Positions 17,450 through 26,911 of a stretch of 27,491 bases of DNA are shown piece by piece. Location of the stretch: the IMG/VR virus record IMGVR_UViG_3300029914_000110. One strand, 5' to 3'. The stretch comes from a virus. Numbering within the stretch: position 1 is the first letter of the stretch; each line of letters opens with the position of its first letter. The notes beneath the pieces were generated by a model that did not search any database, was not told the origin of the DNA, and worked only from the letters and a program-made list of their open reading frames with translations. Both the position numbers and the translations under genes were made by a program.

Positions 17450-17528
17450 TGGTAGCCCCGGCTGGAGTCGAACCAGCGATTTTCTCCTTAGGAGGGAGAT
17501 GCCTTGTCCAGCTAGACTACGGGGCCGC
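17450..17528 (-). tRNA. tRNA-Arg(CCT), with CCA encoded.
   Basis: Hand-folded: acceptor GCGGCCC, anticodon stem TCTCC/GGAGA with loop CTCCTAA, T-arm GGTTCGACTCC. Confidence 0.8.
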
Positions 17529-17607
17529 TGTAAATCTTTCTTCCACGTGCGGCTGTGGATACAACTTCAACATCTTCGATGAGCAGAGTACGCTCAGAGG
17601 ATGAAAG

Positions 17608-18177
17608 CTACTTTTCTAGTTCGATATTCCAATAAGCGTACGAAGCCTTCTCGGCGTACAGCCAGTTCTGCCACTCGGTCCATTCCGGCCTGATGTGCTT
17701 GATGTGCAACTTGAAGTTGAATCGAGGGTCATTAACCTTCGGGATGTATGGCTGATTGAGAAGCGGCATCCCTGCCGCTTCCGGCGTCTGCCCACCCTTA
17801 CGCTTGTTACACTTCACGCAAGCAATTACGCAGTTGAGCCACTCGGTAACACCACCCTGACAACGAGGGTTCACGTGGTCGATGGTGTACTCGTGGGTGC
17901 CCACTACGTGTCCGCAATACTGACACGTTGCGTGGTCACGCGCAAGGAGATTCCGGCGAGTGCATGGCACAGCCGTACGCATTCTCTTTACCCAAGCGTT
18001 CTTTACCTGAATTACGCGAGGGAGCCCCATTTCGAAACTAGTAGAGCGGAGCACCTGACCGCCTTCGTCTTCCTTGACAATCTTTGCACGGTCTTCCCAT
18101 ATAAGTTTAACGCTGCGCTGCCATGGGACAAACCCTACTGGCATCCAGTTGCTGTCGAGTACCAGTGTGTCATTCAT
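17608..18177 (-). CDS. HNH endonuclease, 189 aa.
   Basis: Contains CQYCG...TIDHVNPRCQGG...NCVIACVKCNKRKG, the canonical HNH/McrA-type motif. Confidence 0.85.
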   Translation of the reverse strand: MNDTLVLDSNWMPVGFVPWQRSVKLIWEDRAKIVKEDEGGQVLRSTSFEMGLPRVIQVKNAWVKRMRTAVPCTRRNLLARDHATCQYCGHVVGTHEYTIDHVNPRCQGGVTEWLNCVIACVKCNKRKGGQTPEAAGMPLLNQPYIPKVNDPRFNFKLHIKHIRPEWTEWQNWLYAEKASYAYWNIELEK

Positions 18178-18322
18178 GTGCTCCCCCCTCCCTATCTATC
18201 TAATAGTTGTGGTTTCGTTTCATTTCTCATCCTTTGCACGATGAACTTGACTGCTTTGCGGTTCTATTGGTGGTTTGGAAACCCAAAAATTTTTGGTCTA
18301 CATACTAATACCCAATTCCCCG

Positions 18323-19168
18323 TCATTGTACCATGTTCTCTAGAGCTTTTACCACTGCATTCATATCACAAGCGTAGAACCCCGCCCCGTTGATGCTATT
18401 TATCTCCAGCACATAGGGGATTCCGTCCACTACCCCAACATCAAGCACGAATGCATCGTCAGGGCTCCACCAATCCACTTGCCCCTGTGCGTAGCGTAGG
18501 AGGGGATGGAACAGCGGGTTGAGGCTGTCTATCCTCTGATACATGCACTGCCGTCCTAGCGTCCTGTATGAGCTGCCAGTGACCACTCTACCGTTGACTA
18601 CGAAGAACCGTGCCTCCAGCTCAATGTTCCTTGGGCTGGCGTACATGACCGGGGTGTCACTCCTCAGGGTAGAGTACCCATCGGTGACATCCAGTACCCG
18701 CTTCTTCCACTCGGCCAGCCCGGAGCCGTCCATGACGACGCCACTGAAGGTCTTTGAGTCATGTACCGGGCGGATAAATTTCATCCCGGTGTACTCTAGC
18801 TCCCCGAAGGTACAGAACTTGGCATCGCTGCTGAGCATGTTCGCGCCATACTTCTCGAACAAGACCCGCATGTCGAAGTTGTCGTTCTGGAACCGCCCCG
18901 GCTTCCAACCCTTCTCAGCCGCAATATGCCCAGGGGTGGTCGAACCCCATACCATGACTTTGCCCTCAATATTCAAATTATGGGCATAGGGGATATCCGA
19001 GTCATATTTTGCCTCAACAATATCACCCCGCTGAGCGAACGGTGCCACCTTCACCACCGTATAGGGTACCTGCTGCTCATTCAGAGCGTTGATGATGGTC
19101 GTGTACCCGTACTCATGGAACAGGTCGGTCTGAACTACGTGGTGCATCTTTTTTTTCTCTCTTTGCAT
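18323..19168 (-). CDS. ATP-grasp superfamily ligase, 281 aa, a paralogue of the gene at 5601-6425.
   Basis: Contains ARFFVVNGRVVTGSSY and FVLDVGVVDGIPYVLEINSINGAGFY. An AGGGAG site precedes the ATG. Confidence 0.75.
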   Translation of the reverse strand: MQREKKKMHHVVQTDLFHEYGYTTIINALNEQQVPYTVVKVAPFAQRGDIVEAKYDSDIPYAHNLNIEGKVMVWGSTTPGHIAAEKGWKPGRFQNDNFDMRVLFEKYGANMLSSDAKFCTFGELEYTGMKFIRPVHDSKTFSGVVMDGSGLAEWKKRVLDVTDGYSTLRSDTPVMYASPRNIELEARFFVVNGRVVTGSSYRTLGRQCMYQRIDSLNPLFHPLLRYAQGQVDWWSPDDAFVLDVGVVDGIPYVLEINSINGAGFYACDMNAVVKALENMVQ

Positions 19169-19503
19169 CGCACTCCCTGCACCACCAGATTAACTTCGTC
19201 CATGACGTGTTGGTCTGGCCGGGAAGTAATTGCAATCCCACGCTCATGTTCTTCTTACACGTAGGACACAGACTCTCTCCTCTATCCACGGGAGAATCTG
19301 TGTGTTATGTTTCTATCGCTGACAGTAAGGGCAGCAAATTTCTTGTCATCAATGTTCATTGTTCAACTCCTCAAGTGTAATACTCAATCCCCTGGCTCGG
19401 ATGAAATCCCCGCTGCTAAGATGGTCGGCCAAATACCCGTCCACATTTATATCAGGAAAGGATGACTGCTGCGCTTCGTAGTAGACGAGATCATCGAAGT
19501 TCA

Positions 19504-19920
19504 TCATGTCGTGAAATTATCAATCATCTTGAGTACCTCGGTCAGGGTCTCAACTGCTTGTCCAAGTCCGGCTCGATCATCCAATAGGATGTTGTAGAAG
19601 ATTTTCCCGTGGTTTCCGTAGGGTAGGGGGATGGGGTTCTCGTTGATGGAATCGAGTACAATACCACGCCCCAGCATGTAGTCATTCATGAATTTATGCC
19701 GCTCAGGAGCCGAGGCGGTGAATAGCACAATGTAGAAGCCGCATTCTTGGCAACGCTTCAGGAGGGCAATAACTTTTTCGTGGGTGTACCCCTTCTCGTG
19801 AAAATCAAAGAGGGTTTCGTCAAAATCGACGGCTACAATAAGTTGGGGGTGTTTCTTCCATTCAATGAACAACCGAATAGCACAGTTATGCACATACAGG
19901 TAGGGGTCAGTATCTATCAT
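19504..19920 (-). CDS. HAD-superfamily phosphatase, 138 aa.
   Basis: HAD motif I reads VAVDFDETL (DxDxT). The ATG lies directly downstream of the repeat cluster. Confidence 0.65.
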   Translation of the reverse strand: MIDTDPYLYVHNCAIRLFIEWKKHPQLIVAVDFDETLFDFHEKGYTHEKVIALLKRCQECGFYIVLFTASAPERHKFMNDYMLGRGIVLDSINENPIPLPYGNHGKIFYNILLDDRAGLGQAVETLTEVLKMIDNFTT

Positions 19921-19945
19921 GTACGTTAATACTGTGTTTTGGCTC

Positions 19946-25569: not shown

Positions 25570-26025
25570 CATGAATTTCGTCGTGACAGTTACCACACAC
25601 CATACTTCGGTGTCCACAAGACCAGTGACCCGTACGATGGGTATCTCGGGTCGGGTAAGATTCTGAAACGAGTAATTAAGAAATATGGGGAACAAAGTTT
25701 CCTCAAGAATGTTTGCTTCATCTTTGACAACCCAACGGAAGCGTTCGAGAAAGAGTTCGACTTAATCAAAGCCTATCGCGGAGACCCCATGTGCTACAAC
25801 TTAAGACAGGGTGGAAGCGGGGGGTTTGATTACATCAATCAGGCGGGGCTTAATGGGGCTACCTCTGTAACTGCCGATGACCGAAAACGGGCAATAGTCA
25901 CTCGAAAACAAAAAGCGGGGCTAGACGCAGATTACCAAGATAGGATTCGACGAGGACTCAGGCTTGCAAGAAATACTTTCCGTTCACTGTGTTTACAGTA
26001 CGGTAGACTGTGTAGTAAGTCATGA
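25570..26025 (+). CDS. GIY-YIG-type homing endonuclease-like ORF, 151 aa, on the plus strand inside the tRNA array. The N-terminal GIY block is degenerate.
   Basis: In this frame DGYLGSGKILKRVIKKYGEQSFLKNVCFIFDNPTEAFEKEFDLIKAYRG..YNLRQGGSGG resembles the I-TevI catalytic domain (VYVGS...KYG...ILE...E..LI..Y...GYN...GG.G). The frame is open from ATG at 25570; the track lists only its last 78 aa. Confidence 0.45.
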   Translation, partial: HEFRRDSYHTPYFGVHKTSDPYDGYLGSGKILKRVIKKYGEQSFLKNVCFIFDNPTEAFEKEFDLIKAYRGDPMCYNLRQGGSGGFDYINQAGLNGATSVTADDRKRAIVTRKQKAGLDADYQDRIRRGLRLARNTFRSLCLQYGRLCSKS

Positions 26026-26081
26026 ACCTATCAACCTCTTAGGAGTTAATACTCTACTAAAGAGGTTGATAGTCACGAAAG

Positions 26082-26158
26082 GGTGACGGATGGGAGTCGA
26101 ACCCACCAGAGTCAGGTTTCACAGACCTGCCTAACATACCCAGAGTTAGCACCGTCAC
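26082..26158 (-). tRNA. tRNA-His(GTG), no CCA encoded.
   Basis: Acceptor GTGACGG/CCGTCAC (perfect), anticodon stem CAGGT/ACCTG with loop CTGTGAA, T-arm GTGGGTTCGACTCCCAT. Confidence 0.65.
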
Positions 26159-26201
26159 AACCTGCATATCGGGGTGCTCACGATATGACTTAAACTAAAA
26201 T

Positions 26202-26277
26202 TGGTGCCCCCACCGGGGGTCGAACCCGGAACCTCCGCCTTAAAGGGGCGTTGCTCTACCAGTTGAGCTATAGAGGC
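26202..26277 (-). tRNA. tRNA-Lys(TTT), CCA encoded, with an unusual C at position 33.
   Basis: Acceptor GCCTCTA/TGGGGGC, D-arm AGCTCAACTGGTAGAGC, anticodon loop CCTTTAA, T-arm CCGGGTTCGACCCCCGG. Confidence 0.6.
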
Positions 26278-26458
26278 TCTCCTACAAGCATCAGCCTATC
26301 AACCCCAAATGCAAATCCGCAGCCTTGCTTATACGAACCACCACCGCAAATTTGCTTCTGAGCCCCTGAGGCTGGGACAACTAATCTCGAACCCGTCTTC
26401 TACATAATACGCGAGTCCTCGTTTGACCGCCGTGCTGATTTCGTAAGCGTCGGTAAAT

Positions 26459-26827
26459 TTGCTCACCATCTTCTCTGCCAACGCAACCAACTCATCTCGT
26501 ACCGACCCTCGCGGGTTTAAAATCTCAACACATCTCATCCGCCATCAGTTGGCAGGTCGCAGTGCCCTCGGGTCTCAAACAAGGGGCTCTCCCCTTCTTG
26601 GATTCGAAGAGATTCTTCTACCGCTTCTTGAGCCAGCCGAAATCTACGTAGACAAAGCTGGAGCCGAGATTCTGGGTCAGATGTACACCTTCCCTGATGG
26701 CTCCCTCAACAATCTCGGTGAGACCATTAAGGATGAAGACGCCTCCGCTTCGCTTCAGCTCCCGTCAGTAATCGGGTACCTCTTACTTGCTTCATCGCGT
26801 TGCTCCTTTGAAATTTGGCATGGGTGA
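26459..26827 (+). CDS. Hypothetical plus-strand ORF of 122 aa, of doubtful reality.
   Basis: Open frame only. It overlaps the 3' end of a tRNA and has no recognisable ribosome-binding site or motif. Confidence 0.15.
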   Translation: MLTIFSANATNSSRTDPRGFKISTHLIRHQLAGRSALGSQTRGSPLLGFEEILLPLLEPAEIYVDKAGAEILGQMYTFPDGSLNNLGETIKDEDASASLQLPSVIGYLLLASSRCSFEIWHG

Positions 26828-26911
26828 CAGGATTTGAACCTGCAATTGAGCCTTGCAAGGACTCGACGGTTTTGGAGACCGTTGGGCCGAACCGGATTGC
26901 CCTTCACCCAT
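26816..26911 (-). tRNA. Type II tRNA (Ser-like body, 22-nt variable arm, discriminator G) with anticodon CCA (Trp codon), 96 nt, CCA encoded.
   Basis: Acceptor ATGGGTG/CACCCAT, D-arm GGGC-AATCCGGTTCG-GCCC, anticodon stem ACGGT/ACCGT with loop CTCCAAA, T-arm GCAGGTTCAAATCCTGT. Confidence 0.55.

Follow-up and report, generated by a model that had tools for sequence, protein, structure and literature searches.

That phages bring spare tRNAs of their own into a contest in which tRNAs are damaged has been put forward before (van den Berg 2023, PMC10264068; Burman 2024, PMC11464382; Belukhina 2025, PMC12409363), and such tRNAs can neutralise tRNA-cleaving immunity (PMC12409363, PMC10264068). This field of counter-defence is young and is built on a handful of examples from E. 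coli and mycobacteria, where point changes make the tRNAs resistant. One of the cleaving enzymes, AriB, recognises its substrates by the 3′ strand of the anticodon stem and by U16/U17 of the D-loop (PMC12409363). Its targets include Lys-UUU and Asn-GUU, and Lys-UUU is also a target of PrrC and of a bacterial Schlafen. The present analysis concerns a tRNA island at positions 17450-26911 (minus strand) of the IMG/VR virus record IMGVR_UViG_3300029914_000110; the whole stretch analysed, 27,491 nt, is called the window below. We read this island, which also encodes a minimal arginyl-tRNA synthetase (mini-ArgRS), as a conserved translation back-up against a knock-out of host tRNAs or of their charging, most plausibly by host tRNA-targeting immunity. 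The probability of this reading is put at roughly 0.45.

Contigs near-identical to the window were found in a dozen JGI and ENA metagenomes, and megablast showed no near match to it among 50,697 deposited phage genomes.

Reshaped tRNAs of the island and their recurrence in relatives

ARAGORN called 13 tRNA genes in the island, every one on the minus strand: Arg with the anticodons CCT, ACG, TCG and CCG, Lys with CTT and twice with TTT, Asn GTT in two copies, His GTG, Gln CTG, Met CAT, and Trp CCA. The outermost genes, Arg-CCT (17450-17526) and Trp (26816-26911), coincide exactly with the limits given in the initial annotation; the island is real. Rfam (tRNA gathering score 29) gave 13 matches at 48-73 bits, namely 12 of the ARAGORN tRNAs and a 134-nt element at 23669-23802. 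The tRNA list of the initial annotation was essentially right, with the Trp(CCA) gene at 26816-26911 and the ArgRS-like gene at 22002-23075 missed. The Lys, Asn, His, Gln and Met tRNAs that it listed were all recovered by ARAGORN (as Lys CTT and two TTT, two Asn GTT, His GTG, Gln CTG and Met CAT), His in a deviant form. Of its five Arg isoacceptors, CCT, ACG, TCG and CCG were recovered, and TCT was present only as a deviant copy that lacks the D-arm (Rfam 37.6 bits).

Measured against universal tRNA rules, a Lys-UUU tRNA of the island has C33, Lys, Asn and Trp tRNAs bear long variable arms (V-arms), and some D-arms are altered or missing; the other 12 ARAGORN anticodon loops were standard. The reshaped and deviant genes are as follows.

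21870-21958, minus strand: V-arm tRNA with Lys anticodon UUU, 89 nt, C73, V-arm CCC-GAAA-GGG (ARAGORN; Rfam 53 bits)
23382-23474, minus strand: V-arm tRNA with Asn anticodon GUU, 93 nt, U1-A72, G73, V-arm GGAGC-CUUCGU-GCUCC (ARAGORN; Rfam 52 bits)
26816-26911, minus strand: V-arm tRNA-Trp(CCA), 96 nt, A1-U72, G73, V-arm GAGUC-CUUGCAA-GGCUC (ARAGORN; Rfam 48 bits; aligned with the V-arm Trp tRNAs of contigs L034 and L068)
26202-26277, minus strand: tRNA-Lys(TTT), 76 nt, C33, loop CCUUUAA (ARAGORN; Rfam 60 bits; position-33 survey)
24900-24976, minus strand: deviant tRNA-Arg(TCG) with T-loop UUGGAGU, D-loop without GG, 6-bp anticodon stem and 3-nt variable loop (ARAGORN; Rfam 51.6 bits)
25364-25444, minus strand: Arg(TCT) tRNA-like element with no D-arm and a 22-nt variable region (Rfam 37.6 bits at 25367-25444 with relaxed filters; ARAGORN only at a lowered threshold)
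26081-26158, minus strand: deviant tRNA-His(GTG) with an 11-nt D-loop, C73, U at position -1 and no CCA (ARAGORN; -1 comparison)

Three tRNAs reached 89-96 nt because each carries a long V-arm. As in type II tRNAs, the variable region of all three (21870-21958, 23382-23474 and 26816-26911) exceeds 10 nt and forms a stem-loop (ARAGORN structures, Rfam insertion), and the acceptor and T stems have 7 and 5 bp (ARAGORN). In bacteria, the anticodons of type II tRNAs are those for Leu, Ser or Tyr (or Sec); here they are UUU, GUU and CCA. The Lys-UUU V-arm tRNA has a tRNA-Ser-like body and closely resembles the tRNA-Ser(UGA) of Burkholderia phage Bcep22, with the same anticodon stem, a similar acceptor, V-arm and T-arm, and 78% blastn identity over positions 27-89. 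The D-arm of the 93-nt Asn tRNA is class II-like, with a 3-bp stem and a long loop. U33 is near-universal in tRNAs, and the 76-nt Lys-UUU tRNA departs from it. The same anticodon is in this way found on different bodies, Lys-UUU as the 76-nt C33 form and the 89-nt V-arm form, and Asn-GUU as 75 nt and 93 nt.

Among the deviant forms, the T-loop and D-loop changes of Arg(TCG) are a possible swap of the G19:C56 tertiary pair. The loop CUUCUAA of the Arg(TCT) element gives the anticodon UCU, and its fold was no better than that of shuffles (z -1.1); it is perhaps a decaying gene, or one that works only if a non-standard synthetase charges it. The His gene scored under the Rfam tRNA gathering score, its only match being tRNA-Sec at 27.8 bits, and it has U at position -1 where the relatives encode G-1. 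The remaining seven ARAGORN tRNAs are as follows.

17450-17526, minus strand: tRNA-Arg(CCT), 77 nt, canonical, A73, encoded CCA (ARAGORN; Rfam 62 bits; structure)
20640-20716, minus strand: tRNA with CAT anticodon, elongator Met or Ile2 (ARAGORN; Rfam 69 bits)
21323-21398, minus strand: tRNA-Gln(CTG), A1-U72, G73 (ARAGORN; Rfam 73 bits)
21412-21488, minus strand: tRNA-Lys(CTT), weak D-stem (ARAGORN; Rfam 61 bits)
23491-23565, minus strand: tRNA-Asn(GTT), 75 nt, canonical (ARAGORN; Rfam 64 bits)
24327-24403, minus strand: tRNA-Arg(ACG), canonical (ARAGORN; Rfam 70.5 bits)
25477-25553, minus strand: tRNA-Arg(CCG), canonical (ARAGORN; Rfam 60.6 bits)

The CAT tRNA has G1-C72 and is therefore not of the initiator type.

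Relatives were collected through the mini-ArgRS gene and comprised two IMG/VR contigs and 80 metagenome loci. Contig L034 (143.8 kb, mini-ArgRS 76% identical) has 16 ARAGORN tRNAs, and its gene order is RlaP, tRNA island with mini-ArgRS, R2K ATP-grasp and HNH genes, then Tpt1/KptA and a gene resembling tryptophanyl-tRNA synthetase (TrpRS). In contig L012 (187 kb) a mini-ArgRS with 59% identity is followed by 11 tRNAs (Arg ACG, CCT and TCT, Lys CTT and TTT, Asn, His, Gln CTG, Trp and two Met), and a Macro-domain gene lies upstream. L012, L034 and the window serve the same seven amino acids only, namely Arg, Lys, Asn, His, Gln, Trp and Met. Their tRNA sequences are strongly diverged, and blastn linked only a few of them; the set has therefore been maintained and not just inherited unchanged. 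It consists of all six amino acids with side-chain nitrogen (Arg, Lys, Asn, His, Gln, Trp) plus Met, for which the post hoc chance with a random set of seven is 14/77520.

Reshaped bodies recurred in these relatives. L034 carries three Lys-UUU tRNAs in a row: one of 70 nt whose D-arm is reduced, one of 75 nt, and one of 91 nt that bears a V-arm and is the orthologue of the window V-arm Lys tRNA. It also has three Asn-GUU tRNAs (89 nt with a V-arm, 75 nt with C33, and 91 nt) and two Trp tRNAs. Its long tRNAs are Trp (88 nt), Asn (89 and 91 nt), Lys-UUU (91 nt), Arg-ACG (89 nt) and Arg-CCT (89 nt). The distant 482-kb contig L068 showed a long Trp (84 nt) and a long His (90 nt) tRNA; there a TrpRS-like gene (L068:6706-7329) adjoins the V-arm Trp tRNA, and the mini-ArgRS adjoins three Arg tRNAs. 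Long Val, Thr, Asn, Met, Cys and Gly tRNAs were seen on other contigs that bear the mini-ArgRS. Alignment with normal-sized paralogues showed the V-arm as a clean insertion of 13-18 nt at the variable region. The stem sequence differs between orthologues with pairing kept, the loops are often GNRA, and the long forms often adjoin a normal copy of the same anticodon. The Trp V-arm tRNAs of three lineages (window, L034, L068) all have A1-U72, G73 and CCA, and the Asn V-arm tRNAs of the window and L034 keep U1-A72, G73 and GUU. The bacterial Trp identity set A1-U72/G73 and the Asn marks follow the identity rules in PMC9976931. Given these kept marks and the TrpRS-like genes beside V-arm Trp tRNAs, we read them as cognate tRNAs in a type II body. 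Long tRNAs other than Leu, Ser and Tyr made up 21/155 in the phage loci against 1/37 in about 1 Mb of cellular control loci, a small control, and 7/155 tRNAs in this family of phages had a base other than U33, among them one Asn tRNA and two Lys-UUU tRNAs that are independent of each other.

Codon counts bear on the classical explanation for phage tRNAs, in which they top up codons or amino acids that are short in the host and the variant shapes are incidental. Served and unserved codons were about equally frequent in the window (16.1 vs 16.5 per mille), and in about 20 genes per phage neither the window nor L034 nor L012 used the served codons more than the others (Mann-Whitney p 0.65, 0.96 and 0.25). 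The commonest residues, Leu, Ala, Val and Glu, have no island tRNA, while AGA, AGG and CGA, each 6-8% of Arg codons and the rarest of them, have their own. These results argue against simple mirroring of phage codon use. Supply and demand also leaves two or three body plans per anticodon and the flanking repair enzymes unexplained. It does accommodate the side-chain-nitrogen set, the fair abundance of Lys (6.6-6.8%) and Asn (about 4%) among residues of the window proteins, the identical amino-acid set in the three relatives, and a phage ArgRS, which would also raise charging capacity. On balance we consider it unlikely.

Mini-ArgRS, RNA repair and the HAD protein

The following protein genes lie in the island, elsewhere in the window, just beyond it or in the relative L034.

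22002-23075, minus strand: minimal ArgRS, 357 aa (Pfam; NCBIfam argS; PDB alignment; AlphaFold model; Foldseek)
L001:167-2107: RlaP (PF10127), 646 aa, E 1.9e-10, also conserved in L034
L034:18168-19518: Tpt1/KptA RNA 2′-phosphotransferase (E 2e-51) and 278-aa TrpRS-like gene, at the end of the island
5074-5502, minus strand: peptidyl-tRNA hydrolase of the PTH2 type, not in the island but related to it in theme (Pfam E 1.1e-5; 26 bits, cut-off 23)
19504-19920, minus strand: stand-alone capless HAD phosphatase of the BT0820-like family, 138 aa (phrog_1238; profile; AlphaFold model; Foldseek)

The mini-ArgRS showed the class I HIGH motif as HVGH in SPNLNKDLHVGH, a KMSKS-type motif as KKMRS, and the Arg-pocket motif SSGVATYAAHD aligned to 1IQ0, all on a Rossmann core, and a DALR anticodon-binding domain (DALR_1, E 8.6e-8); these are the features by which an ArgRS is recognised. 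The protein aligned to PDB entries 1IQ0 and 6AO8, and a profile of 38 homologues matched ArgRS entries only in the PDB, with E down to 6e-21. The AlphaFold model had a pLDDT of 94.3, and its top 20 Foldseek matches were all ArgRS at TM scores of 0.67-0.74, which fell to only 0.41-0.56 when normalised to the target. Query residues 16-57 correspond to 96-137 of 1IQ0 and residues 121-139 to 291-309; therefore the N-terminal ~95 residues and ~90 insertion residues are absent, and the full-length architecture of ~560-670 aa with an N-terminal Add-1 domain was not seen. Add-1, the missing N-terminal part, reads the tRNA D-loop. From motifs, profiles and the model, the product is confidently predicted to be an ArgRS core. 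The family measures ~330-420 aa, is common on large metagenomic contigs of up to 648 kb and is nearly absent from 185,579 one-per-species representative genomes. A profile scan of these genomes gave no informative host; beyond ordinary ArgRS genes it returned one contig of a metagenome-assembled genome at 34% identity. Arg tRNAs were present in 16/23 of the tRNA-bearing loci with a mini-ArgRS gene.

The RlaP nucleotidyltransferase lies ~0.4 kb past the window end, on contig L001, which is 99.97% identical to the window where the two overlap. Damaged 3′ ends of RNA are extended by RlaP by one or two nucleotides, and the enzyme is needed in vitro for restored aminoacylation of heavily damaged, repaired tRNA (PMC12776372). 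The N- and C-terminal parts of the L001 protein matched phrog_388 and its middle matched intein-containing models, so the gene is probably interrupted by an intein. An RlaP-centred repair system has the nucleotidyltransferase beside an RNA ligase and enzymes that modify RNA ends; of such parts, RlaP was seen beside the window and in L034, and Tpt1 in L034, while no ligase was found in the DNA examined.

The same genes speak to another origin of the damage, in which the phage itself disables host tRNAs or translation and replaces them with shape-immune versions. Such a shut-off would also account for the structural diversification and the phage synthetases, and Yang et al. 2021 are said to have proposed that degraded host translation components drive viral tRNA acquisition. 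RlaP and Tpt1 suit defence against external damage better, and Pfam, PHROGs and PADLOC gave no nuclease or toxin candidate among the open reading frames (ORFs) of the window, which is a small part of the genome. PADLOC scanning of the unassigned window ORFs for defence or nuclease domains likewise gave nothing credible. We regard a phage-inflicted shut-off as clearly improbable.

The initial annotation had also called the HAD protein at 19504-19920 PNK-like and a plausible partner for healing RNA ends. The HAD fold stood. Motif I was found as D32-x-D34-x-T36 in a Rossmannoid fold with downstream acidic motifs, D32, D34, K106 and D114-D115 were invariant and T36 nearly so in 36 homologues, and the AlphaFold model had a pLDDT of 91.9. 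Pfam gave no match, and NCBIfam gave only weak generic HAD matches. Neither phmmer nor a profile search matched Pnk in the PDB, where the only profile match was 2OBB (142-aa BT_0820). Foldseek placed 2OBB and 1XPJ first, with no Pnk among the top 50. The 120 homologues listed each stand alone, measure 129-206 aa and have no recorded Pfam domain; at this size they are too short for a kinase fusion. The marks of a Pnk-type enzyme, namely a fused P-loop 5′-kinase, a Pnk-homologous phosphatase domain and a ligase nearby, were not found, and the gene is missing from the related islands L034 and L012. With no Pnk similarity, no kinase and no island conservation, the role of PNK-like end-healing partner is therefore not supported, and it was rejected on sequence, profile, fold, homologue size and absence from relatives. 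The HAD protein is outside the conserved module.

tRNA-like pieces, repeats and neighbouring genes

Besides the tRNAs, four tRNA-like pieces were found in the island.

23324-23371, minus strand: 3′ half of an Asn(GTT) tRNA from anticodon loop to CCA, a truncated pseudogene (T-arm scan; 87.5% identity to the 3′ half of the L012 tRNA-Asn)
23669-23802, minus strand: interrupted Arg-type tRNA with intact acceptor, D-arm and T-arm (Rfam 51 bits with a 77-nt insertion)
24414-24468, minus strand: acceptor/T-arm minihelix, 55 nt, G3:U70, ACCA end (Rfam tmRNA 30.7 bits, gathering score 47)
24621-24695, minus strand: tRNA-like cloverleaf, 75 nt, with a perfect 7-bp acceptor stem, U73-CCA and T-loop GCCAACA (acceptor plus NCCA scan)

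In the interrupted Arg-type tRNA a branched insert of ~77 nt with a possible UCU loop takes the place of the anticodon arm (fold z -3.9), and the 3′ part showed 90-97% identity to the Arg-TCT and Arg-CCT tRNAs of L034. A group I intron was rejected here, as the insert is only ~77 nt and Rfam showed no match even at E<=5. The minihelix resembles the tRNA-like domain of transfer-messenger RNA (tmRNA) and folded no better than shuffles (z -1.05). A tmRNA gene was also rejected: ARAGORN called 24026-24510 and 24414-24692 only at a lowered threshold, no recognisable tag was present, and the sole Rfam support was the 55-nt tRNA-like end below its gathering score. Part of the 24414-24692 region is better read as the separate 75-nt cloverleaf, whose minimum free energy structure is the cloverleaf itself (-35.7 kcal/mol, z -3.87) and was matched by 0/200 shuffles. 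Its anticodon arm is a 6-bp stem with a tetraloop cap, so there is no anticodon loop.

Gln(CTG) at 21323-21398 and Arg(ACG) at 24327-24403 have identical anticodon stems and loop flanks, the sole difference there being the three anticodon bases. The 5′ half of the window Arg(TCG) resembles the Arg(TCT) of L034. Both likenesses indicate anticodon switching within the array.

Such pieces are what neutral turnover would leave behind, if the array were churned by duplication, recombination and homing endonucleases and the odd forms were degenerating copies. The truncated Asn tRNA, the Arg-TCT element and the minihelix that fold like shuffles, the His tRNA without G-1 and CCA, the HNH endonuclease in the island and the Gln-CTG/Arg-ACG switch all agree with it. 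Against it, the window and L034 have both retained V-arm versions of the same anticodons, with stems paired through different sequence and identity elements intact. V-arm tRNAs are also found again in distant lineages and in phiKZ-like phages that have been isolated, and long non-Leu/Ser/Tyr tRNAs are frequent beside the small cellular control (21/155 vs 1/37). Turnover as a full account has little chance of being right; the island is a mix of maintained, reshaped and decaying genes.

The cloverleaf and the serine-like Lys tRNA raise the further idea of non-canonical use, either to soak up or mislead defence proteins that bind tRNA, or through serylation by seryl-tRNA synthetase that leads to deliberate missense decoding. 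The Lys-UUU V-arm body is close to a phage tRNA-Ser(UGA), and the perfect cloverleaf at 24621-24695 has no anticodon loop. G73 with a long arm is a serine signature, and a Leu tRNA takes on Ser identity when its A73 is replaced by G73 (PMC9976931); precedents are the allo-tRNAs (PMC5389517) and the nematode nev-tRNAs cited there. Set against these, the Trp and Asn V-arm tRNAs keep A1-U72 and U1-A72, TrpRS-like genes stand beside V-arm Trp in L034 and L068, and missense across the proteome would harm the phage too. We hold this use to be very improbable.

Several further signals were noted between the genes. Directly 3′ of CCA, the motif R-W-TTT follows eight tRNA or tRNA-like ends (e.g. 21407-21414, 23486-23493, 24322-24329 and 26811-26818), and CCA-R-W-TTT occurs 11 times in the window against 4.4 expected. 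The motif is probably a 3′-processing signal; related CCAAGTTT motifs occur inside long intergenic RNAs. Two ORF-less stretches of 360-415 nt between tRNAs, 21490-21850 and 23905-24320 (minus strand), look highly structured and had no Rfam match; one of them ends in a T-arm (23935) and an acceptor-like strand. A YrlA/Y RNA at 23558-23661 was set aside as a weak lead, with 22 bits against a gathering score of 69 and a likeness limited to the module of T-arm, hairpin and D-arm. ARAGORN intron-mode tRNAs inside ORFs (7465-7677, 22381-22765, 25111-25356 and 18359-18444) were treated as false positives. In L034, a 52-nt element (L034:8400-8451) has a 7-bp acceptor stem, CCCA followed by AGTTT, and a 5-bp internal stem with the loop GUCAUAA, a CAU-like loop; as it lacks a D- or T-arm, it may be due to chance.

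A repeat unit of ~36 nt, GTTACATCCCCGGAAAGTCTCGGGGTNNGATTGAAA(G/C), has six minus-strand copies at 19954-20214 and 20757-20835, and a seventh, degenerate copy lies near 27300-27345. Each unit is a GC hairpin followed by GATTGAAAG, at times with a tandem GATTGAAAG; the spacing is irregular (46-87 nt), and the copy number differs among near-identical contigs. We take the unit to resemble a type I-C-like CRISPR repeat. It could act as solitary units of an RNA anti-CRISPR, or be a phage regulatory repeat. Two near-consensus sigma-70-type promoters were seen on the minus strand, at 27251-27280 upstream of the island (11/12 matches) and at 21274-21303 after tRNA-Gln (10/12), while the overall count of promoter-like sites was not above chance. 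An intrinsic-terminator-like hairpin lies near 27020-27050.

Further protein genes of the island are listed here.

17608-18177, minus strand: HNH endonuclease, probably a homing-type element (Pfam HNH_5 E 1.5e-11; 72% identity in L034)
18323-19168, minus strand: R2K-clade ATP-grasp enzyme, a CDC123-like predicted peptide ligase (Pfam R2K_3 E 5.5e-14; phrog_7313 E 5e-48; 54% identity in L034)
20218-20625, minus strand: DUF5522 protein with a Cys-rich C-terminus (Pfam E 4e-14)

Outside the island, the minus strand carries a second R2K ATP-grasp gene (5601-6509), Ku (6850-7836) and rIIB/rIIA (8315-11966). With rIIA/rIIB, Ku, two R2K genes and PTH2, the window content is typical of a large T4-like or jumbo phage; the roles of R2K ATP-grasp enzymes and of PTH2 in jumbo phages are treated in PMC7824862. 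An 819-aa homologue of the major vault protein at 2484-4943 (minus strand; MVP_shoulder E 3.5e-26, Vault_3 E 1e-9) is unusual in a phage. A GIY-YIG homing endonuclease on the plus strand (25588-26025) is not claimed, since the likeness was by eye only, Pfam and NCBIfam gave no match, and the N-terminal half has no start codon.

The back-up reading and its closest described systems

In a back-up against tRNA or charging loss, the island would supply tRNAs for Arg (all six codons), Lys, Asn, His, Gln, Trp and Met and so keep these codons decodable when host tRNAs or their charging fail. Several anticodons are carried by at least two body types, among the standard, type-II-like long V-arm, U33C and reduced D-arm forms, and the reshaped copies would no longer fit enzymes that recognise a tRNA by its body near the anticodon stem and D-loop. 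With the mini-ArgRS, which is without the D-loop-reading part, the phage would not depend on the host enzyme to charge Arg tRNAs, perhaps deviant ones too. By analogy with the standard tRNA L-shape, the long V-arm would project near the region that AriB reads. C33 of Lys-UUU adjoins the base at which PrrC cuts. The analysis shows the gene content, the predicted RNA and protein structures, the conserved repertoire and long V-arms of the relatives, the lack of any relation to phage codon frequency and the repair genes nearby. It is inferred that the island tRNAs are expressed, charged and used in translation, that a host nuclease exists, that the variants resist it, and that the mini-ArgRS pairs with deviant Arg tRNAs.

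The initial annotation had reached replacement tRNAs that evade host tRNA cleavage by another route, arguing that the set matches the substrates of known anticodon nucleases. That argument is weak. Nuclease targets have been named across many tRNA families (PMC10264068, PMC12409363, PMC13056530); mycobacterial VapC, MazF and RelE alone cover 10 phage-encoded tRNA species, and the targets of Schlafen are Lys, Met, Val, Phe and Ile. A set that fits known substrates should therefore be easy to come by. A colicin E5 type of nuclease would also call for Tyr and Asp tRNAs, and AriB for Thr-UGU, none of which is in the island. The replacement idea itself has circumstantial support from other evidence: the conserved repertoire, the missing link to codon frequency, the reshaped Lys, Asn and Trp tRNAs, RlaP and PTH2. 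RlaP, Tpt1, PTH2 and the phage synthetases, joined to the V-arm and C33 considerations, make counter-defence the best single reading, at the probability given at the outset.

A number of observations weigh against it. The island has no tRNA for Tyr, Asp, Thr-UGU or Glu, which known nucleases also hit, and the anticodon loop is the ordinary CU-NNN-AA in 12/13 ARAGORN tRNAs. Within the window, Pfam, PHROGs and PADLOC found no tRNA nuclease, and the scanned ORFs held no RNA ligase domain (Rnl1, Rnl2 or RtcB), a domain equally absent from L001, L034 and L012. The host was not found by megablast to phage genomes or by a scan of species-representative genomes for the CRISPR-repeat-like unit. The codon test took in ~20 genes per phage, none of them an identified late gene, and covers the phage side only. 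Decaying pieces are present (the Asn 3′ half, perhaps the D-armless Arg-TCT and the deviant His), so that some variants may be pseudogenes, and a long V-arm with G73 could confer serine identity instead.

If the V-arm, C33 and D-arm-reduced copies work, phages can alter the tRNA body plan with amino-acid identity unchanged, the limit of bacterial-type long-arm tRNAs to Leu, Ser and Tyr fails in viruses, and viral mini-synthetases may have co-evolved with such tRNAs. A broader proposal is that large phages systematically re-body tRNAs for Trp, Asn, Lys, Arg, His and other amino acids, by a grafted type II V-arm or by loss or change of the D-arm or U33, with identity marks kept, which would let them escape shape-reading nucleases, that some add mini-synthetases to form partly host-independent charging pairs, and that the phiKZ-like tRNA-Asn is a culturable example. 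We advance this only tentatively, as a doubtful generalisation. The idea of reshaped tRNAs is directly testable, because phiKZ-like phages of Pseudomonas that have been isolated carry an Asn tRNA much like that of the window. If true, it would provide new parts for orthogonal translation and call for caution in annotation pipelines that label such genes ordinary tRNAs or pseudogenes.

Compared with the described systems, phage T5 facing PARIS is close: T5 encodes copies of the cleaved host tRNAs, including Lys-UUU and Asn-GUU, its tRNAs resist through changes in the anticodon stem and D-loop, and more than one tRNA is needed. The T5 changes are point substitutions in normal-sized tRNAs, with host and nuclease known, whereas the island shows arm insertions, C33 and D-arm loss and has no Thr tRNA. 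The AriB 'UAAU' site rule gave an inconsistent pattern on the island tRNAs and was not used, the host not being E. coli. Mycobacteriophages of cluster C1 (PMC10264068) share a large tRNA array unrelated to codon frequency, with proposed evasion of VapC and MazF through anticodon-loop mutations; the initial annotation applied this hypothesis to the window. That study compared phage with host tRNAs at known cleavage sites, while the present island was judged from phage tRNAs alone and its loops are mostly ordinary. T4 Pnk and Rnl1 share the theme of a phage answer to PrrC-cut tRNA-Lys, and T4 Pnk has a HAD-type phosphatase domain. In the window the HAD protein is stand-alone and BT0820-like, with no kinase and no ligase nearby, and the repair-linked enzymes are RlaP and, in L034, Tpt1.

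Bacterial allo-tRNAs (PMC5389517) and nematode nev-tRNAs share the long variable arm on anticodons of other amino acids, and the Ser-like body with the window Lys-UUU tRNA. The allo-tRNAs have 8/4 or 9/3 acceptor/T stems and serine identity, whereas the phage V-arm tRNAs have 7/5 stems, carry Trp or Asn marks and stand beside normal copies. A further structural parallel came from the phiKZ-like Pseudomonas phages PA1C, phiHQ and BRkr, which have an 87-nt tRNA-Asn built like the 93-nt Asn tRNA of the window.

L166:1495-1581 (MK599315.1): tRNA-Asn of the isolated phiKZ-like jumbo phage PA1C, 87 nt, V-arm GGC-GAAA-GCC

Shared features are U1-A72, G73, the CCCGAG..GGG D-arm, GUU and a GAAA-capped short V-arm, with 88% BLAST identity over the D-arm and anticodon arm. 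The phiKZ-like gene differs in being annotated as a plain tRNA-Asn and in being a single gene outside a paired set. The literature searched held no description of phage long-variable-arm tRNAs other than Leu, Ser and Tyr, nor of the extra arm in the phiKZ-like tRNA-Asn. Set beside these systems, the concept is known. What appears undescribed, going by the literature searched, is that tRNAs with the same anticodon have whole arms remodelled, that the remodelled forms are paired with normal copies, and that they are associated with minimal synthetases. Synthetases of huge phages and giant viruses share with the island a viral ArgRS that adjoins its cognate tRNAs. Cellular ArgRS measure ~560-670 aa in the matched structures; the enzyme encoded here has 357 aa and lacks the N-terminal Add-1 domain and the insertion domains.

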